Of a DNA stretch of 32,000 nucleotides, positions 321 through 32,000 are shown in pieces. Both the position numbers and the translations under genes were made by a program. Source of the stretch: Coriobacteriia bacterium (GTDB taxonomy: Bacteria; Actinomycetota; Coriobacteriia; Anaerosomatales; Anaerosomataceae); the NCBI GenBank assembly GCA_049658145.1, contig JBASOJ010000051.1:13449-45448 (forward strand), read 5' to 3'. The notes below the pieces were generated by a model that searched no databases, had not been told where the DNA came from, and was given only the letters and a program-made list of their open reading frames with translations. The stretch's first letter is position 1. Every line of letters starts with the position of its first letter.

Positions 321-1562
321 ATGGCGGGGGGCGGACTGCTTGAACCGTTGCGCTCGAGGGATTTCCGCTGCCTGTGGTTCGGACAACTCGTCTCCGTCGT
401 CGGCGACAAGGTCGATCAGATAGCACTCGGCCTGCTTGTCTACCAGAAGACCGGCTCTGGTCTGCAGATGGGCATCACGCTGGCGATCTCGATGCTCCCT
501 TCTGCCGTGTTCGGCATGGTCGCCGGAACCTATGTGGATCGCTTCGACAAGCGGCGCACGATGCTGACGGCGGATGTGCTGAGGGCGGTGTTGGTTCTCG
601 GCGTGCCGTTCGTGGCGGAGCGCTTCGAGAGCATCGTGCCTGTCTACGCCATCGCGTTGCTACTGGCGACCGTCGGGCTGTTCTTCGAGCCGGCGAAGCT
701 CTCCCTGATCCCGAAGCTCGTCGACCGCGAGCGTTTGATGGCGGCGAATTCGCTCGATAGCGCGACCGTCTCTGTCGCCGAGCTCGCGGGCCTTGCTTTT
801 GCGGCGGCCGCGGTCGCGAGCATGGGCGTCCGCCTGGCCTTCTTCTTCGACGCCGCCACCTTCGTGGTGTCTGCCGCCTTCATCTTCGCGATCGGCTACC
901 GGGAAGCGGTCAAGCGTGCCGAGGGCGGGATCATGACCGGAGTCGGTGCCGACCTGATCGAGGGCCTTCGCTACGTCTGGCGGCATGGGGTGCTCCGAGA
1001 TCTTCTCTCGGTGTACGCCGTAGCGATGTCTGCGGTGGCCGCATCCGTCACGTTCGTGTACGTCCTGGCGCTCGATACATTCGACGGCGGGGCGCCAGGT
1101 CTGGCGCTCATGGACGGTGCGATAACCGTGGGCCTCCTGCTCGGCAGCATCGCCGTCGGGCGCGGAGCTGCGAGCGGTGCCACACGCAAGTTGCTCTGGG
1201 GTCTCACTGCCTTTGCGGCATTGCAGTTCCTGCTTGCGGTGGCGCCGTCGATCGCCTGGTCGGTACCGGTGCTACTCGCGATGGGCGTTGCGAACATGTA
1301 CTTCTATGTGCCGATGTCCACGGTGCTGCAGACAGCCTCCATGCCTTCGATGCGGGGACGCGCGTTCGCCGCCAAGCAGACGCTCAGCCGGGCGTTCTCG
1401 GTTGCGGGATTCGTGGCCGCCGGTGCCGTCGCCGAGCACCTGGGCGTTCGCCAGTCCATCGTGCTGGTGAGCGCGGTCCTCGTGCTGGTGGCCGCTGTGG
1501 GATGGTCCCGGCCCGCCTTGCGCGCGGATCTGGCCGCTGACGTTGCCGAAGTCGTGGAGTAG
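321..1562 (+). CDS. MFS transporter
   Basis: About 12 hydrophobic segments. The N-terminus FRCLWFGQLVSVVGDKV and the motif DRFDKRR after TM2 are typical of MFS (EntS-like) proteins. Start moved to ATG 321, which follows GGGGGA; ORF-track start 255 is less likely. Confidence 0.85.
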   Translation: MAGGGLLEPLRSRDFRCLWFGQLVSVVGDKVDQIALGLLVYQKTGSGLQMGITLAISMLPSAVFGMVAGTYVDRFDKRRTMLTADVLRAVLVLGVPFVAERFESIVPVYAIALLLATVGLFFEPAKLSLIPKLVDRERLMAANSLDSATVSVAELAGLAFAAAAVASMGVRLAFFFDAATFVVSAAFIFAIGYREAVKRAEGGIMTGVGADLIEGLRYVWRHGVLRDLLSVYAVAMSAVAASVTFVYVLALDTFDGGAPGLALMDGAITVGLLLGSIAVGRGAASGATRKLLWGLTAFAALQFLLAVAPSIAWSVPVLLAMGVANMYFYVPMSTVLQTASMPSMRGRAFAAKQTLSRAFSVAGFVAAGAVAEHLGVRQSIVLVSAVLVLVAAVGWSRPALRADLAADVAEVVE

Positions 1563-1640
1563 ACTCGTCGTGCAGGCTAAAGCCCGACGCCCCTCGCGTC
1601 GAAGAACCTCCTGTGCCACCGAGACGAAGGCGAGCGCTTC

Positions 1641-2744
1641 ATGGCGGAGATCGACGGGCTACTGAAGATGATGACCGATAATGGCAGTTCCGACCTGCAC
1701 CTCAAGGTCGGAAGCCCTCCGGCCGTGCGCCTGAACGGCAAGCTGGCCGTTCTCCGGGAACTGCCGACGCTCACGCCCGAGGCCACGAGCAGGCTGGCGA
1801 CGTCCATGATGGACGATCGACAGAAGATCTCTTTCGAGAACCACCGGGAGCTCGACTTCGCCTACTCGCTACCCGGTGTCGGGCGGTTCAGGGTCAACGT
1901 CTTCCATCAGCGCGGCAGCGTCGGGATAACGCTGCGCCATGTGAGCACCGAGCGAGCGGGGATCGAGGGCCTGGGTCTCCCTCCGGTTGTCAGACGTCTC
2001 GCCGAGGAGCCGCGCGGCCTCGTGCTGGTCACGGGCACCGCCGGTTCGGGCAAGACCACCACGCTCGCCGCGATGATCGATCACATCAATCACACGCGCG
2101 AGGGCCACATCGTCACGATCGAGGACCCGATCGAGGTCTTGCACCAGGACGCGAAATGCATCATCAATCAGCGCGAGATAGGGATCGACACCGAGAGTTA
2201 CGCCGATGCACTGCGCCATGTCGTCCGCCAGGACCCCGACGTCGTGCTGATCGGTGAGATGCGCGACCATGAGACGGTATCCGCCGCACTCACCGCCGCG
2301 GAGATCGGCAACCTGGTACTCTCAACGCTCCACACGATCGATGCCACCGAGACCGTCAACCGCATCATCGACTTCTTCCCGCCATACCAGCAGAAGCAGA
2401 CGCGACTGATGCTCGCCTCCACGCTCAAGGGCATCATCTCGATGCGGCTCATCCCGTCGATCAACGGTGGACTCGTCCCCGCCGTCGAGGTCATGGTCAT
2501 GACCGGCACCATTCGCGAGTACATCATGGACTCGGAGAAGACCTATCTGATCCGGGATGCGATGGAGGAGGGCGAGTACTACGGCATGCAGACGTTCGAT
2601 CAGAGCCTGCTGAGCCTGTACTCGCAGAATCGCATCACGATGGACGACGCGGTAGCGATGGCGGGCAACGCGCACGACTTCAAGATCAAGGTGCGCACAC
2701 TGGGCATCACGGCCGAGCAGGCCACGCAGACCGGCATCTACTGA
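1641..2744 (+). CDS. pilT: type IV pilus twitching-motility ATPase PilT family
   Basis: 367 aa. N-terminus GSSDLHLKVGSPPAVRLNG, Walker A GTAGSGKTTT, Asp/His boxes, and IGEMRD...LSTLHT, characteristic of the PilT/PilU retraction ATPases. Confidence 0.9.
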   Translation: MAEIDGLLKMMTDNGSSDLHLKVGSPPAVRLNGKLAVLRELPTLTPEATSRLATSMMDDRQKISFENHRELDFAYSLPGVGRFRVNVFHQRGSVGITLRHVSTERAGIEGLGLPPVVRRLAEEPRGLVLVTGTAGSGKTTTLAAMIDHINHTREGHIVTIEDPIEVLHQDAKCIINQREIGIDTESYADALRHVVRQDPDVVLIGEMRDHETVSAALTAAEIGNLVLSTLHTIDATETVNRIIDFFPPYQQKQTRLMLASTLKGIISMRLIPSINGGLVPAVEVMVMTGTIREYIMDSEKTYLIRDAMEEGEYYGMQTFDQSLLSLYSQNRITMDDAVAMAGNAHDFKIKVRTLGITAEQATQTGIY

Positions 2745-3192: not shown

Positions 3193-4095
3193 GTGCGCCG
3201 AAGTACCGCTCTCATCGCCGTGGTCGTGTCGTCGGCATGCTTCGCCACGCTGGCGGTCCTCGCCCGGCTCGCGTACGCCGAGGGCGGGCGTCCGCTCCCC
3301 CTGCTGACGTGGCGGTTCGCCGTCGCTGCTGCGGTGATGGCGACGTTCCTTGCCCTGCGCCAGCGGTCGGCACTTGTCGCGGGCGTCCGGGATATCCCGC
3401 GATACGCCCTGTTGTCGCTCACGGGTTACGGAGCCGCGTCGATCTGCTTCTTCTTCGCACTACGGCACCTCAGCGCATCGGTCGGGACGCTCTTGCTCTA
3501 CGCGTACCCCGCGATCGTGGCAGTGATAGAGAGCGTACTCGATCACCAGCGGCTTCCGGTATCGCGTGTGGTGGCTGTCGCGCTCACTTTCGCCGGGTGC
3601 GCTCTCGCCGCCGGACTGCTGGACTCCGCCGTAGTCGTGAACGTGCCCGGTGTCCTGCTCGCGCTCGGCGCGGCATCCGCCTACGCGCTGTTCACGTTGT
3701 TGTCGAGTCGACTCATCGCAGACCGATCCAGACTCGTGCTGATGACGTACACGTTCGGCATCTCGGCGATCGGCATCGGCGTTGTGACACTCCTCGCCGG
3801 AGAGTCGCTCGTGCCGACCGGATGGACGCCACAGCTGTGGCTCATCCTCGGCCTGATGGTCCTGCTGCCCACGTATGCGGCCGTGGTCCTGTTCTTGAGT
3901 GGCATTCGGGCGCTGGGCCCGTCCCGTGCATCGCTCATCTCGACGATGGAACCTGTGTTCACCGTCGCTCTGGCCGGAGTCGTCCTGGGAGAGCGCATGA
4001 CCGCGACACAGTGGGCGGGCGCCCTGCTCGTGATCGCCGGGATCGCGCTCGCCGAGCGTCCGCGCGGTGTCGTTGAGGTGCCAGCCGCCGTCTAG
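3193..4095 (+). CDS. EamA/DMT family transporter
   Basis: 300 aa, about 10 TM segments arranged as two EamA-like halves. GTG start preceded by GGAGGA. Confidence 0.8.
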   Translation: MRRSTALIAVVVSSACFATLAVLARLAYAEGGRPLPLLTWRFAVAAAVMATFLALRQRSALVAGVRDIPRYALLSLTGYGAASICFFFALRHLSASVGTLLLYAYPAIVAVIESVLDHQRLPVSRVVAVALTFAGCALAAGLLDSAVVVNVPGVLLALGAASAYALFTLLSSRLIADRSRLVLMTYTFGISAIGIGVVTLLAGESLVPTGWTPQLWLILGLMVLLPTYAAVVLFLSGIRALGPSRASLISTMEPVFTVALAGVVLGERMTATQWAGALLVIAGIALAERPRGVVEVPAAV

Positions 4096-4754
4096 CCGGC
4101 TATCAGCACCACGAGCGCACGCGCGGCCCAACCGCCGATGGTGATCGCCGCCTGGCCGCCGAAGGCCCACGCGGTCGCGGTCCGGACATCGCGCTCGGGC
4201 ACGCCCGCCCCGGTGAGGCCCCGGTACGTGAGCACCGAGGACACTGCCAGCGCGACAAGCTGGAGTAGCCACGTCGCTGCGACCGCGTAGGGGAGCAGAG
4301 CGGCCAGATACGCGGTCGAGAGACGTGCCCGGCTGATCGCCCCCTTCGGCATCAGGACCGCGAGGATGATGAACCGCGCGCCCGCCCACAGCACCTGGCT
4401 GCCCACGCCGACGGCGACTGGCAACCAGAGGCTTGTGGAAGTCGCAGTGCTGATGCCGGTCGCGATGAGGCCGAAGATGAACGCACGCAGCCCCACGGCT
4501 GTCGCGACGCGTCGTGCGACATCGTCAGTCGTGTCCCAGGGAAGCGCAGAACTGGCGTGATAGGTTCGCAGTAGCGACCACTGGTGGACCCACGCGTTGG
4601 CGATGGCGCGCACCCCGGGGCCCACCCGCCGAACCAGCGAAACGGCTCCCGCAATCGTCCGGCGCCAGGCAGCGAAGAGCCCCGCGGGCAGCGACCCCAC
4701 GGCGGGGTCGTCCACACGGGACTCTGATGGTCCTTCTTCGGCGTTCGTGGGCAT
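4092..4754 (-). CDS. hypothetical integral membrane protein
   Basis: 220 aa. Hydrophilic N-terminus followed by 4-5 hydrophobic segments, with high GC3 in this frame. No family recognised. Confidence 0.55.
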   Translation of the reverse strand: MPTNAEEGPSESRVDDPAVGSLPAGLFAAWRRTIAGAVSLVRRVGPGVRAIANAWVHQWSLLRTYHASSALPWDTTDDVARRVATAVGLRAFIFGLIATGISTATSTSLWLPVAVGVGSQVLWAGARFIILAVLMPKGAISRARLSTAYLAALLPYAVAATWLLQLVALAVSSVLTYRGLTGAGVPERDVRTATAWAFGGQAAITIGGWAARALVVLIAG

Positions 4755-4842: not shown

Positions 4843-5175
4843 TTACGAAGCGCTCAGTCTGGCCTGCACCGCTCTCAGGATCGCGGGGTACGATACGGCT
4901 CCATCGTACATCGGCTCTCCGTCGACCACCGTCACGGGGTAGACGAGGCCCTGGTCCTGGATACGCTGGATCATCACACCGTGGCTGGCGAGGACCTCGG
5001 CGCGACTCGCATCGTGGTAGACGATGCTCGCGCTATCGCCGAAGCGATGCTCGACTTCACTGCGGATCATCGCGGTGATCTCCTCCGGAGACCAGGACGG
5101 CCCTCATCCACCGCTCCAGCAGGTCGTCTCGACGGGGTAGTCGAAGACTTCGATGGTCACCCTGGGTTCAGGCAT
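4843..5175 (-). CDS. thioredoxin-fold (YuzD/ArsD-like) small protein with one in-frame TGA at 5104-5106; candidate selenoprotein, C-x4-U motif
   Basis: ATG 5173-5175 is preceded by AGGAG. It reads MPEPRVTIEVFDYPVETTCWSGG-TGA-GPSWSPEEITAMIRSEVEHRF...LSAS-TAA. ORFs 5104..5343 and 4843..5070 share this frame and are separated only by that TGA. The TGA sits 5 codons after a Cys, where a thioredoxin-fold redox motif is expected. An 8-bp hairpin starts 10 nt downstream. Confidence 0.5.
5076..5094 (-). other. candidate bacterial SECIS-like hairpin downstream of the in-frame UGA
   Basis: The minus-strand RNA is UGA GGGCCGUCC UGGUCUCC-GGA-GGAGAUCA. That gives an 8-bp stem (one G-U pair) with a G-rich apical loop starting 17 nt after the UGA. 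Confidence 0.35.
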
Positions 5176-5186
5176 CCTTGTCGCTC

Positions 5187-5390
5187 CTATCCGACTCGAA
5201 CGGCGCCGCCGGGACAGCTGAGCGCGCACACCGCACAACCGGTACAGCGGTCGGGATCTATTGCGTAGCCCTTCGCGCCGGGATAGAAACCCCCGGCGAT
5301 CGGAACGATAGCCCCCCGCGGGCAGGCACGTCGTGCCGGACATGCCGGGGACCGGTCGCAGCTCGAGGCGTCGATGGTGACGGTTCGCAC
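5187..5390 (-). CDS. small 4Fe-4S ferredoxin-domain protein
   Basis: 67 codons. GTG 5388-5390 is preceded by GGAAGGAG. Canonical CTGCAVCALSCP (CxxCxxCxxxCP) plus an atypical first motif CDRSPACPARRACP (Cx5Cx5CP). This is the only real part of the 823-aa antisense ORF 5187..7658. Confidence 0.75.
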   Translation of the reverse strand: MRTVTIDASSCDRSPACPARRACPRGAIVPIAGGFYPGAKGYAIDPDRCTGCAVCALSCPGGAVRVG

Positions 5391-7205: not shown

Positions 7206-7287
7206 GCCGATCTTCGGGGCAGGAATGGGCGCGTCTCTGCCGAATAGCGCGTGAAGAAGGACTCCGGTGTCCATGCCGGTGTTCGTA

Positions 7288-7316
7288 TTGTCCGGCACCA
7301 AGGGTTCGGCTATCGT
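7288..7316 (+). promoter_or_regulatory. possible promoter upstream of the multihaem cytochrome gene
   Basis: TTGTCC (7288-7293), 17 nt spacer, TATCGT (7311-7316). Weak match to consensus. Confidence 0.25.
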
Positions 7317-7401
7317 TTGTCGGAGGACGGCCGAGTGGGCTGTCTCTGTGTGCTGGGCATTTGGGGCTTTCCCTGGGACGGCGAGCGAGGAGAGGGTGCG
7401 C

Positions 7402-9528
7402 ATGGCAAAGGATCCGAAGGAGAAGAAGGAGAAGAAGCCGTCAGGGTGGAAAGACCCGATCAGGCGCCCCCGGTACATCATTTGGGCAGGCGTTGCGCTG
7501 ATCGGCCTTTGCGCGATCATCCTTGTCGGCTTTGCCGGATCGTCCACCGACTGGTTCTGCGGAACGCTGTGCCACTCGGTGCAGGGTGACGCGGTCGCCG
7601 CGTACGACCAGGGCACGCACAACAAGGTCAACTGCCTGACGTGCCATGAGCCGGTCAATGGCGACCCCGTGATCTTCGCCTATCGCAAGGTGGAGGCCGG
7701 TGTGCTTGGCGCGTATCAGCTGGCGACCACGACGTACTCGTCGCCGCTGAATCCGAACAGCCACCTCGCGCTCAACCGCAGTGAGATGGACATGTCGGAC
7801 GGTCACTGCACCCAGTGCCACTCGCTCGAGAACCGGGACATCACTCCGAGTGAAGGCATCATCATCAACCACAACGCCCATACGGATCGGGAGATCAACT
7901 GCACCGCGTGCCACAATCGTGTGGCGCATCCCGAAGACGGGCTCGAGACCATCGCGACCAATCCCGAGACGGGTGAGCCTGCGGCCAAGCACGCTGACTT
8001 CATGACCATGACCGCGTGCTTCCGCTGCCATACCCTCACCGATGAGTCTCCGTCCGGTAAGGAGTTCAAGGCGCCTGGTACCTGCGCGACGTGCCATTCC
8101 GCCGACTTCGACCTCAAGCCCGCGAACCATGACGACTCGAACTTCTACCCGGCCGGTCACGCGGACCTCGCGATGATGGAGATCGACCATGCCACCGGGC
8201 GTCCGGCCGAGGACGTCATCCGTCCCGTCGAGTATGGCGAGGGCGAAGAGGGCGGCGAGGAGGCTGCGGGAGGCGCGGAGCCCGAGAGCGCTCGCTCCGA
8301 AGAGAGCGACCCCGAGGTCCTTCCCGTTCCGCATGTGTGGGAAGTGGACTACTGCTCCACGTGTCACATCGAGGGCACCTTCTGCACCGGGTGCCACGGT
8401 ATGGAGATGCCGCACTCGGAGGAGTTCGAGACCAAGACCCACCCCGAGACCGCAGCCACGATGATCGACAAGTGCGAGTTCTGCCACCAGCAGTCGACTA
8501 CGTACTTCTGTGACAACTGCCATCACGGCACCAAGGTCGACTGGGCCTTCGATGCCGCTTCGCCATGGCAGAGCCAGCACGCTAAGACCGTGGTCGAGAA
8601 GGGCGTCGCCGGGTGCCTCGGCGCATGCCACGAGCAGCAGTTCTGCGTGGATTGCCACACGGCCCTCAAGCCGGTTCCGACCTCGCACGCGGCTGCGGAC
8701 TGGCTGCATGCCGGTCTCACCGTGACGTCGTACCCGGACGGCCACGCAGTGGCCAGCGCCTCTCACGCGCTTCTGGCCCAGAAGTCGATCGAAGCGTGCG
8801 AGGTATGTCACGGCACCGGTGGCACCGCTTCTCAGTTCTGCGTGAACTGCCACCAGCTCGAGATCCCGCACCCGGACCAGTTCAAGGTCAATCACGTCTC
8901 TGGTCGCAACACGCCGCAGGTGTGTGCCAACTGCCACAAGGCCGTCGAGCTCTGCTCCGACTGCCACCACAAGGGTGCCGTGAACGGCACGCCGTGGCAG
9001 CGTCAGCACCCGGTGACCGTTGCCGCGGACGGCGCGAATCCGTGCTTCGAGAAGTGCCACCAGGACAAGCAGTTCTGCGTTCAGTGCCACACCACGCTGA
9101 AGGCGGTTCCGACGTCCCACACGGTGGGCGACTGGACGCACCGCGCGACCGATGCCGGTGCGGCTCACCAGGTCGCGTACCAGGCGGCGACGGACTCGTG
9201 CGACTACTGTCACGGTGACGGCGGCGTGAAGGCGGCGTTCTGCCAGAACTGCCACCAGGTCGAGATGCCGCACGCCGGCGGATATGCCGACGCGGGTCAC
9301 CAGGCCGATCTGACCACCAACGGTGTTCAGAGGCCCGTGTGCCAGAACTGCCACGCGCAGGCGTTCTGCGACAGCTGCCATCACAAGGGTTCTGTCGCCG
9401 ATCAGAAGTGGGTGTTCTATCACCCGGAGATCGTGGCCAAGGACGGCGCACAGCCGTGCTTCGAGTGCCATGAGCCGACGTTCTGCTCGTACTGCCACGT
9501 CAACAAGGCAGCCACCCTTACGCGCTAG
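7402..9528 (+). CDS. membrane-anchored multihaem cytochrome c: 21 CxxCH + 3 CxxxCH, NapC/NrfH-like N-terminus plus three tandem hexahaem modules
   Basis: ATG 7402 follows GAGGAGAGGG. Lys-rich cytoplasmic N-terminus, then one TM helix (YIIWAGVALIGLCAIILVGFAG). The segment TDWFCGTLCH...VNCLTCHEP resembles NapC/NirT. An acidic linker EYGEGEEGGEEAAGG follows. I counted 24 haem-binding motifs in the translation. Confidence 0.9.
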   Translation: MAKDPKEKKEKKPSGWKDPIRRPRYIIWAGVALIGLCAIILVGFAGSSTDWFCGTLCHSVQGDAVAAYDQGTHNKVNCLTCHEPVNGDPVIFAYRKVEAGVLGAYQLATTTYSSPLNPNSHLALNRSEMDMSDGHCTQCHSLENRDITPSEGIIINHNAHTDREINCTACHNRVAHPEDGLETIATNPETGEPAAKHADFMTMTACFRCHTLTDESPSGKEFKAPGTCATCHSADFDLKPANHDDSNFYPAGHADLAMMEIDHATGRPAEDVIRPVEYGEGEEGGEEAAGGAEPESARSEESDPEVLPVPHVWEVDYCSTCHIEGTFCTGCHGMEMPHSEEFETKTHPETAATMIDKCEFCHQQSTTYFCDNCHHGTKVDWAFDAASPWQSQHAKTVVEKGVAGCLGACHEQQFCVDCHTALKPVPTSHAAADWLHAGLTVTSYPDGHAVASASHALLAQKSIEACEVCHGTGGTASQFCVNCHQLEIPHPDQFKVNHVSGRNTPQVCANCHKAVELCSDCHHKGAVNGTPWQRQHPVTVAADGANPCFEKCHQDKQFCVQCHTTLKAVPTSHTVGDWTHRATDAGAAHQVAYQAATDSCDYCHGDGGVKAAFCQNCHQVEMPHAGGYADAGHQADLTTNGVQRPVCQNCHAQAFCDSCHHKGSVADQKWVFYHPEIVAKDGAQPCFECHEPTFCSYCHVNKAATLTR

Positions 9529-9649: not shown

Positions 9650-9726
9650 CGGGATGTGGCTCAGCTTGGTAGAGCGCTGCGTTCGGGACGCAGAGGTCGT
9701 GGGTTCGAATCCCGCCATCCCGACCA
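9650..9726 (+). tRNA. tRNA-Pro (anticodon CGG)
   Basis: Hand-folded cloverleaf. Acceptor CGGGATG/CATCCCG, anticodon arm CTGCG-TTCGGGA-CGCAG, T-loop GGTTCGAATCC, encoded CCA. Confidence 0.9.
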
Positions 9727-25801: not shown

Positions 25802-27287
25802 CACGCTCAGCCGCGGCAAGGAGGAGTTCGTCCCTCGCGATCCGGGCGCGGTGGCGATGTACGTGTGCGGGCCGACCGTCTACAACCACATCCACATCGG
25901 CAACGCTCGAACCTTCCTCACCTTCGACGTCATCCGCCGGTACCTCACCTACGCGGGCTACGACGTACGCTTCGTTCAGAACGTGACCGATGTCGACGAC
26001 AAGATCATCGCGCGCGCCGCCGAGGAGGGCCGCGAGCCCGCCGAAGTCGCCTCCGACTACACACTGGCGTTCCGCGCGGCGATGGACGCGCTCGGCATCG
26101 AGCGCCCCACGGCCTCCCCCAAGGCGACCGAGACCATCCCCGGTATGATCGCGATGACCGAGCGGCTGATCGAGCGCGGTCACGCCTACGTCGTAGACGG
26201 CGACGTCTACTTCGCGGTCCGCAGCTTTCCCGACTACGGCAAGCTGTCCGGCCGGAACATCGACGATCTCGAGTCGGGCGCGCGTGTGGATGTGGACGAG
26301 CGTAAGCAGGACCCGCTCGACTTCGCGCTGTGGAAGTCCGCCAAGCCCGGCGAGCCCCACTGGTCCAGTCCGTGGGGCGAGGGCCGGCCCGGCTGGCACC
26401 TCGAGTGCTCGGTCATGTCGGAACAGGAGCTCGGCGTGACGTTCGACATCCACGGCGGGGCGAGCGACCTCATCTTCCCGCACCATGAGAATGAGATCGC
26501 ACAGTCCGAGGCCGCGACGGGCCGGCCGTTCGTTCGGTACTGGCTCCACGGTGGTCTGTTGCAGGTGAATGCCGAGAAGATGAGCAAGTCGCTCGGCAAC
26601 TTCATGCTGCTGAAAGATGTGCTGGCGCAGTACCCTGCGCCGGTCGTGCGCGTGCTGATGCTGCAGACGCACTACCGCAGCCCGCTCGATTTCTCACCCG
26701 ATCGTCTCGAGGAGGCGTCGCGCTCGTACGAGCGGCTCGTCACGCCGCTGCGCAACCTGGAGTGGGCAAAGCGCAACAGGGCGACGGGAACGCTCAGCGA
26801 GGCGACGCCGTCGGCGATCGCGGCGCTCGAGGAGATCCCCGGTGCCACCCGGCGGGCGTTCACCGCGTCGATGGACGACGACTTCAACACTGCAGGTGCG
26901 CTCGCCGCGCTCTTCGACCTCGTGCGCGTGCTCAACACCTTCCTCGAGCAGCATGGCATCGGCGACAACGCGCGGTACGCGTCGCGCCTCGATGAGGCGG
27001 CGGCGACGCTCACCGAGCTCCTCGGTGCGCTCGGGGTGTCGATCACGACCTCCGCGCGGGGTGCCGAGTATCCGGCGGATGTCTTGCCGATGGCTCGCGA
27101 CCTGGCCGGCTACGATGGCGGCGACGCCCGGGCGGCGGTGGATGCGCTGCTCGCGGCGCGTGCGGTTGCCCGCACGGAGCGCAACTGGGCCGCGGCCGAT
27201 GCGGTCCGGGATGGGCTCGCCCGCCTCGGCTTCACCATCGAGGACACCGCCTCCGGCGCACGCGTCGTCTTCCACGGCCGCGGGTAG
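25782..27287 (+). CDS. cysS: cysteine--tRNA ligase
   Basis: 501 aa. HIGNAR (HIGH) and KMSKS motifs, class I fold. Overlaps the cysE 3' end by 20 nt. Confidence 0.95.
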   Translation: MTIRVYNTLSRGKEEFVPRDPGAVAMYVCGPTVYNHIHIGNARTFLTFDVIRRYLTYAGYDVRFVQNVTDVDDKIIARAAEEGREPAEVASDYTLAFRAAMDALGIERPTASPKATETIPGMIAMTERLIERGHAYVVDGDVYFAVRSFPDYGKLSGRNIDDLESGARVDVDERKQDPLDFALWKSAKPGEPHWSSPWGEGRPGWHLECSVMSEQELGVTFDIHGGASDLIFPHHENEIAQSEAATGRPFVRYWLHGGLLQVNAEKMSKSLGNFMLLKDVLAQYPAPVVRVLMLQTHYRSPLDFSPDRLEEASRSYERLVTPLRNLEWAKRNRATGTLSEATPSAIAALEEIPGATRRAFTASMDDDFNTAGALAALFDLVRVLNTFLEQHGIGDNARYASRLDEAAATLTELLGALGVSITTSARGAEYPADVLPMARDLAGYDGGDARAAVDALLAARAVARTERNWAAADAVRDGLARLGFTIEDTASGARVVFHGRG

Positions 27288-31739: not shown

Positions 31740-32000
31740 ATGGCCAAGAAGAAGTTCGAGCGCACCAAGCCGCACATGAACATCGGCACCATCGGTCACG
31801 TCGACCACGGCAAGACCACCCTTACCGCTGCGATCACCAAGACGCAGTCCGAGAAGGGCCTCGCCGATTTCACCCCGTTCGACCAGATCGACAAGGCTCC
31901 GGAGGAGCGTGAGCGCGGTATCACCATCGCCATCGCGCACGTGGAGTACGAGTCGGACAAGCGCCACTACGCGCACGTCGACTGCCCGGGTCACGCCGAC
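31740..32000 (+). CDS. tuf: elongation factor Tu, N-terminal part (3' end outside window)
   Basis: ATG 31740 follows GAAGGAGGAG. Reads [34 protein letters not shown]...[13 protein letters not shown]...DCPGHAD. Not in the ORF track because no stop lies within the window. Confidence 0.95.

Follow-up and report, generated by a model that had tools for sequence, protein, structure and literature searches.

A predicted selenocysteine form of the DUF1462/ArsD-like thioredoxin fold in Coriobacteriia

Introduction

Is the single in-frame TGA in a small open reading frame (ORF) of a Coriobacteriia bacterium the end of a short peptide, a lesion in a decaying gene, or a codon for selenocysteine (Sec)? 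The ORF lies at 5175-4843 on the minus strand of a stretch of 32,000 nucleotides (nt) (assembly GCA_049658145.1, contig JBASOJ010000051.1, positions 13,449-45,448), which we call the window. An earlier note on the same DNA had proposed that the pieces on either side of the TGA form one Sec-containing protein. Our analysis indicates that the ORF is very probably a genuine Sec-encoding gene for one 110-residue selenoprotein, a reading to which we assign a probability of about 0.85. We infer the insertion of Sec because three features came together in silico, namely a conserved UGA, Cys/Sec pairs among the relatives, and a hairpin of the bacterial selenocysteine insertion sequence (bSECIS) type. 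The selenenylsulfide chemistry and the electron transfer with a ferredoxin that are proposed below are likewise inferred.

Results

Structure of the gene

The predicted gene is complete (4843-5175, minus strand). It consists of 110 codons, with Met1, Cys19, Sec24 and Ser110 as reference points, followed by TAA, and it would encode a thioredoxin-fold protein of the DUF1462/ArsD-like type. The start codon ATG at 5175-5173 opens MPEPRVTIEVFDYPVETTCWSGG and is preceded at 8 nt by the Shine-Dalgarno sequence AGGAG (5184-5188, minus strand); most orthologs have a comparable GGAG or AGGAG ahead of the conserved ATG. Codon 19 is TGC (5119-5121, minus strand), and codon 24 (5104-5106, minus strand), which we predict to be read as Sec, is the sole in-frame TGA of the ORF. 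Together, they give a C-x4-U motif. The frame runs unbroken for 86 codons after the TGA to the terminator TAA at 4845-4843. The earlier note had described the start with its Shine-Dalgarno sequence, the TGA, the preceding Cys and the 86-codon continuation, and every one of these sequence statements was verified in the window.

Conservation of the TGA and continuity of the frame

Scanning of one genome per species with tblastn gave 80 loci, all of which belong to metagenome-assembled genomes of the Coriobacteriia/Anaerosomatales type. In these 80 genomes, the matches cross the TGA and cover residues 1-110. When all related loci from about 80 species genomes of this group are considered, the same codon is TGA in 84 of 84, and it is embedded in the consensus C-x-[SG]-G-G-TGA-G-P-[STA]-W-[ST]-P. 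Fourteen distant metagenomic Sec-form members (L089-L092 and L100-L109), with DNA of 41-66% GC, share the TGA. Ten of them (L100-L109) came from a metagenome scan with a variant hairpin pattern and carry either C-x3-U or C-x4-U.

In 81 distinct sequences, the invariant residues include D12, P14, C19, G22, G23, G25 and P26, and their third codon positions are free (0.6-1.8 bits); Cys19 is Cys in all 81, with TGC and TGT varying. Because the flanking residues are invariant while the third positions vary freely, the sequences indicate that protein-level selection acts on both sides of the TGA in one continuous frame. The Gly codon immediately before the UGA (5107-5109, minus strand) ends with U or A in 79 of the 81 sequences (GGT in 59 and GGA in 20), and the neighbouring Gly prefers GGC. 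This bias might reflect an influence of the 5′ context on how the UGA is recoded.

Public databases hold the family mostly in truncated form. A search of 5.8 billion proteins gave 145 relatives, and among the matches listed, nearly all have 61-88 residues, corresponding to the C-terminal two thirds only. The annotated starts of these truncated entries vary (MIRSE, MRAE, VRAE, MTAIV, MQNRF, MLYYD and others). NCBI labels the fragments "DUF1462 family protein" or "hypothetical protein", and JGI labels them "disulfide oxidoreductase YuzD". The sole full-length entry among the set of 145 (P0002) has Trp at position 24. Its DNA is TGA at this codon, and the gene call had therefore used a code that assigns Trp to UGA. 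The earlier note had pointed to two findings that would speak for a separate downstream domain or for a pseudogene, namely homologues that begin at the equivalent of its MIRSEV and signs of decay in related strains. The called starts are not conserved between species, and no decay was seen. The joining of the two ORFs into one protein is supported by the tblastn matches across the TGA and by the conserved N-terminal strand, Cys19 and GG-U-GP residues. Thus, the evidence supports one predicted gene that comprises both the 23-codon piece and the piece of 75-86 codons.

Cysteine at the position of the TGA

An exhaustive HMMER search of 1.84 billion cluster representatives returned full-length relatives with either Trp or Cys at position 24. 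In the Trp-type entries (P0127, P0132, P0134 and P0138), which come from contigs of 41-61% GC, the DNA again reads TGA and is followed by the same hairpin. The Cys-type entry P0121 has the codon TGC at the Sec position. With 51% identity and a place in the same ferredoxin/DUF2085/SAM_HAT synteny, it is an ortholog. From its sequence, P0121 looks like a recent Sec-to-Cys conversion, an event that has rarely been documented in bacteria (2026 review, PMC13188914). At the P0121 locus (L093:505-870), 15 of the 19 hairpin nucleotides are kept, including a rare TCT codon. More distant Cys forms carry C-x4-C (P0128, P0137 and P0143) or C-x3-C (P0141, P0150 and P0151).

The same correspondence was found in two related families. 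In an alignment of the family profile with the PDB, the second Cys of the CASC motif in 1XG8 (Staphylococcus aureus SA0798, DUF1462) aligns to the U. In a profile-profile alignment by hhalign (probability 95.8%, E 6.7e-9) with an ArsD from an arsR-arsD-arsA operon, Cys18 aligns to the U and Cys13 to Cys19, such that CC-x4-C-G-P of ArsD lands on (T)C19-x4-U24-G-P. A Cys aligned to the TGA, for which the earlier note had suggested a search, is therefore present in P0121, P0128, P0137, P0143, 1XG8 and ArsD, and the C-x4-C-G spacing that it had given for ArsD was confirmed by the alignment to genuine ArsD. It had also noted a likeness to Bacillus subtilis YuzD. The link to DUF1462 is borne out by Pfam, PDB sequence and fold comparisons, whereas the attribution of the quoted string to B. 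subtilis is not, as this string occurs verbatim in 1XG8 (S. aureus SA0798).

The hairpin downstream of the UGA

A SECIS-type hairpin, UGGUCUCC-GGA-GGAGAUCA, is located at 5094-5076 (minus strand), within the coding sequence at codons Trp28-Thr34. Its first nucleotide is the 10th after the UGA, where the earlier note had placed the start of an 8-bp hairpin. The element (U GGUCUCC GGA GGAGAUC A) has 19 nt, an 8-bp stem, a GGA loop and a minimum free energy of -9.3 kcal/mol. The bSECIS model specifies a loop of 3-9 nt with G in the first two loop positions, an upper stem of 4-16 bp, a UGA-to-loop distance of 16-37 nt and a minimum free energy of -7.5 kcal/mol or lower (PMC13188914). The hairpin agrees with all four constraints, with its GGA loop, its 8-bp stem, 17 nt from the UGA to the loop and the energy given above.

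The codons that form the hairpin are held at the nucleotide level. Codons +4 to +9 (TGG TCT CCG GAG GAG ATC), including the otherwise rare TCT, show zero synonymous change among the 81 distinct sequences, and the third-position entropy is 1.4-1.8 bits in the neighbouring invariant Gly, Pro and Arg codons. Together with the TGA in all 84 loci, this pattern goes well beyond what is expected by chance. Over 86 sequences, 99% of the hairpin cells are paired. Distant members of low GC content exhibit double changes from G-C to A-U and from C-G to U-A, together with several wobble-compatible single changes. In the region from -9 to +60, the 8-bp hairpin is the only consensus structure that RNAalifold returns, and the geometry compatible with SECIS elements that the earlier note had seen is borne out. 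The encoded peptide W-S-P-E-E-I-T is relaxed in the Cys-form relatives, which fits the possibility that the RNA element holds this peptide in the Sec forms.

Other tests of RNA structure were negative. RNAalifold did not support a conserved lower stem including the UGA, and the z-score of the 73-nt region is not significant in this GC-rich sequence. Rfam searches of the whole window at the gathering threshold and of 4950-5200 at permissive E-values detected no SECIS or relevant family and gave two matches at chance level.

Predicted fold

For the Pfam comparison of the joined 110-residue protein, U was written as C. The best Pfam match, DUF1462 (PF07315), covers residues 17-103, across the TGA, with 26.9 bits against a gathering cut-off of 25 bits (E 5.9e-6), and the relatives P0121 and P0138 score 32.9 and 33.8 bits, respectively. 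Pfam ArsD (PF06953) scores 18.1 bits (E 0.0034), below its cut-off of 27 bits. By this measure, the predicted protein is a formal, borderline member of PF07315.

The AlphaFold2 model of P0002, a homologue with 57% identity and with Trp at the Sec position, shows a thioredoxin-type beta-alpha-beta-alpha-beta-beta-alpha fold with a predicted local distance difference test (pLDDT) value of 76, and the motif sits between beta1 and the long helix alpha1. The top Foldseek match of this model is 1XG8 (E 3.4e-4, template modelling (TM) scores of 0.49/0.56), which is also the best PDB match by the family sequence profile (E 2e-4); thioredoxins and ArsD are also among the best Foldseek matches. As modelled, the selenoprotein is a thioredoxin-fold protein between DUF1462/YuzD and ArsD, with the motif C19-x4-U24-G-P at the end of beta1 before alpha1.

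Genomic context

A ferredoxin gene of 67 codons (5187-5390, minus strand) with a GTG start and matches to Pfam Fer4 families lies directly upstream of the selenoprotein gene and is co-transcribed with it. Its stop codon TAG (5189-5187) overlaps the Shine-Dalgarno sequence of the selenoprotein gene, and this overlap suggests translational coupling of the two genes. Of 86 loci, 82 encode a ferredoxin with seven Cys directly upstream and in the same orientation, and its Cys pattern, C-x5-C-x5-CP plus CxxCxxCxxxCP, is conserved. It is the likely redox partner of the predicted selenoprotein. The ferredoxin ORF has a good Shine-Dalgarno sequence and is uncalled in all five public assemblies that contain the exact locus (L002-L006); it seems to be a small gene that annotation regularly overlooks.

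The distant members extend this context. The metagenomic locus L102 encodes a 215-residue fusion (1509-2156, plus strand) of a ferredoxin domain (C-D-x-S-P-x-C...CP; 41% identity) and a canonical thioredoxin domain. After this gene come the Sec gene and genes for a TrxR-like flavoprotein and a Trx_3/Grx-like protein, and OsmC is encoded next to them. The fusion connects the ferredoxin with thiol redox chemistry in the manner of a Rosetta stone. OsmC, TrxR-like and Trx_3 neighbours are also present in L100 and L109, and a CsoR-family repressor lies downstream in L105 and L089. Among the Cys forms, P0141 is located between trx and a trxB-like gene, P0137 comes after a ferredoxin, and P0143, which has a repeated CGP motif, directly follows arsR-arsD-arsA as gene four of their operon (L096:80-3129). 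This operon thus carries a DUF1462-like paralog in addition to a true ArsD.

The wider neighbourhood is very stable across the order. The tRNA-Pro(CGG) gene at 9650-9726 (plus strand) lies about 4.5 kb from the selenoprotein gene and is present in almost every one of the 80 genomes (L007-L086), with a divergent MCP gene and a YjgF-family gene in between. A multihaem c-type cytochrome of 753 residues (7267-9528, plus strand; Cytochrome_C7/MtrC-like matches and weak double zinc ribbon matches) is encoded near the locus in many genomes. On the other side, a predicted membrane protein of 220 residues with no Pfam or NCBIfam match (4092-4754, minus strand) starts 88 nt downstream of the selenoprotein gene. 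Only 39 of the 86 loci gave a tblastn match to a similar gene, in 38 of them no more than 4 kb away, and the gene is therefore probably outside the conserved unit. Elsewhere in the window, ARAGORN reported an 83-nt tRNA-Ala(cgc) at 25985-26067 (minus strand) that was not found by the Rfam tRNA model and is probably a false call; the other five tRNAs were found by both.

Discussion

Proposed mechanism

We propose that the UGA of codon 24 is decoded as Sec by the usual bacterial pathway, with Sec-tRNA(Sec) delivered by SelB bound to the SECIS hairpin. The 19-nt stem-loop would act from within the coding sequence, 10 nt after the UGA, and would thereby fix the peptide W-S-P-E-E-I-T. In the mature protein, Cys19 and Sec24 would cycle between a thiol/selenol pair and a selenenylsulfide, and the protein would serve as a small redoxin in a thiol-redox relay, with the 7-Cys ferredoxin encoded upstream as the likely electron partner. 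The odds that it functions as such a thiol/selenol redoxin, with a Cys19-Sec24 selenenylsulfide and electron exchange with the ferredoxin, appear to us to be about even. We favour this function because of the weight of the gene context (ferredoxin, Trx, TrxR-like protein and OsmC).

A more specific version is a tentative suggestion, which we consider rather unlikely. In a minimal two-protein, flavin-independent system, the Fe-S cluster of the ferredoxin might reduce the selenenylsulfide directly, or Cys19 or Sec24 might provide the missing fourth ligand at the three-Cys site of the ferredoxin. A parallel can be proposed with ferredoxin:thioredoxin reductase, the cluster of which reduces a disulfide. 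If true, the two-protein system would tie the low-potential ferredoxin pools of subsurface anaerobes to thiol/selenol redox control.

Alternative explanations

Stem-loops 3′ of stop codons can stimulate read-through in general, and the Sec machinery of these genomes is assumed. The UGA might therefore be something other than a Sec codon: it might be read through by near-cognate tRNAs inserting Trp, Cys or Arg with stimulation by the hairpin, or it might terminate a 23-residue peptide, with re-initiation yielding a separate C-terminal domain. We consider these possibilities improbable. Orthologs as well as both related families have Cys precisely where the UGA lies, which is the signature of Sec and not of leaky termination, and the hairpin conforms to the bSECIS model on every point, among them the two G residues that open the loop. 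Re-initiation, in turn, has no conserved start codon or Shine-Dalgarno sequence after the UGA to rely on, since the called starts differ by species, and beta1 and Cys19 would be severed from their own fold. The splitting of the ORF by gene callers, and the UGA = Trp code used for P0002, P0127, P0132, P0134 and P0138, could suggest a decaying pseudogene or a lineage-wide reassignment of UGA to sense, and we rejected both as highly improbable. More than 90 divergent sequences keep the identical TGA with no further lesion and under strong selection on both sides, which excludes decay. Of the 17 well-supported window genes, 6 end in TGA, as do many orthologs of the selenoprotein gene itself; the internal TGA would thus be recoded by its local context and not by a change of the code.

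The main functional rival to the redoxin is an ArsD-like metalloid or metal chaperone, that is, a selenoprotein in which Cys19 and Sec24 bind As(III), Sb(III), a soft metal or an Fe-S cluster for hand-over. The alignment of CC-x4-C-GP of genuine ArsD on (T)C-x4-U-GP, the presence of ArsD structures among the best fold matches and the position of P0143 directly after arsR-arsD-arsA are consistent with such a role. In addition, an ArsD-like Cys-Cys doublet is present in L058 (ACCSGGUGP) and P0121 (ACCSSGCCGP), a CsoR-family repressor adjoins some distant members, and most predicted contacts between Sec and ligands involve metals (2026 review, PMC13188914). However, the window and the conserved synteny of the 80 genomes contain no arsA, arsB or arsR, and the equivalent of ArsD Cys12 is Thr, Ala, Ser or Asp in nearly all members. 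The ArsD model of Pfam stays under its cut-off, and most of the informative gene contexts are those with Trx, TrxR-like proteins, OsmC and ferredoxin. We consider a chaperone unlikely.

Several points weigh against a redox selenoprotein at this locus. Neither selA, selB or selD nor a tRNA-Sec turned up in the 32-kb window or in the related loci, which amount to about 1.4 Mb (±10 kb in the 80 genomes), and the Sec decoding machinery of these genomes is assumed. ARAGORN gave no tRNA-Sec in the window or in about 90 loci. When Escherichia coli SelA, SelB, SelD and FdhF were compared by tblastn with the window and the related loci, the sole match was the start of an EF-Tu-like GTPase gene at the end of the window (31776-31994, plus strand), which was rejected as SelB (40% identity over 74 positions, SelB residues 1-61). 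This gene start comes after a tRNA-Tyr/Thr/Met cluster. No second selenoprotein gene was seen nearby, and no FdhF homolog in the window or the related loci. When all loci were screened for in-frame TGA codons that are conserved and have a coding signal on both sides, only the present family and antisense or end-of-gene artefacts came up. The hairpin 17-mer occurs nowhere else in the related loci, which leaves no second SECIS of the lineage for comparison. Covariation in the hairpin amounts to two double changes only; its main evidence is invariance, and the invariance of its codons could in principle reflect another RNA-level function. The AlphaFold2 model of P0002 is only moderately confident at the motif (pLDDT of about 62 for residues 31-40), and it has Trp at the Sec position. 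Finally, the functional assignment draws wholly on context, and one Cys-form relative (P0143) is found in an ars operon and not in a redox cluster. Sec decoding has been documented for Actinobacteria in general (PMC5322559), and papers on Anaerosomatales and on strain EMTCatB1 contained nothing on selenocysteine.

Significance

If our reading is correct, it adds a Sec form, with the motif C-x4-U-G-P, to the DUF1462/YuzD-ArsD branch of the thioredoxin fold. This Sec family would be conserved throughout an entire order of Coriobacteriia from the subsurface and would occur in several other lineages, with the implication that Anaerosomatales use selenocysteine. It also points to a systematic annotation error, as about 145 database clusters hold only the last 61-88 residues, without the active site, and the partner ferredoxin is often uncalled. 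The unusually invariant 19-nt SECIS may offer a compact element for the study of SelB recognition in Actinomycetota and for finding more selenoproteins. The linkage to a ferredoxin, together with the ferredoxin-thioredoxin fusion, would be the first concrete functional lead for the uncharacterised DUF1462 family.

Comparison with known systems

The predicted selenoprotein resembles DUF1462/YuzD proteins (SA0798, 1XG8) in its thioredoxin-like fold, its length and a C-terminal (L)xYP(L/V)...DG...G motif. In clear distinction, SA0798 has C-x2-C (CASC) after beta1, with Cys at both positions, whereas the window protein has C-x4-U followed by G-P, and some distant members have C-x3-U. With ArsD (PF06953; PDB 3KGK, 3MWH and 3KTB), it shares the fold, a similar beta1 strand (V-x-V/I-F-D-P) and the spacing of the active pair, C13-x4-C18-G-P being superimposed on C19-x4-U24-G-P. 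It differs in carrying Sec where ArsD carries Cys. In the As(III)-binding triad of ArsD (Cys12-Cys13-Cys18), Cys13 and Cys18 are matched by C19 and U24, whereas the site of Cys12 is occupied by Thr in the window protein and by various residues across the family. Membership in ArsD was therefore rejected, given the sub-threshold Pfam score, the missing Cys12 equivalent and the lack of arsA or an ars operon in the lineage.

The known bacterial selenoproteins with a thioredoxin fold comprise Trx, Grx, Prx-like, DsbA-like and AhpF-N-terminal-like proteins and the Trx-like Sec.1/Sec.2 (PMC13188914). The predicted protein is similar to them in its small size, in having Sec in a redox motif before alpha1, in its abundant Cys homologues and in the bSECIS hairpin within the coding sequence directly after the UGA. 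They differ from it by their UxxC, CxxU, CxU or UxC motifs and belong to other Pfam and NCBIfam models. A review of prokaryotic selenoproteomes from May 2026 (PMC13188914) lists no PF07315, PF06953, DUF1462 or CxxxxU in its table of families. No model of NCBIfam release 20 matches the joined protein, and literature searches linking selenoproteins with DUF1462, YuzD or ArsD returned nothing relevant. On these grounds, the family counts as a new one among selenoproteins, but its kind, that of thioredoxin-fold redox proteins with a bSECIS element inside the ORF, is familiar, and we do not regard it as a new kind of system.

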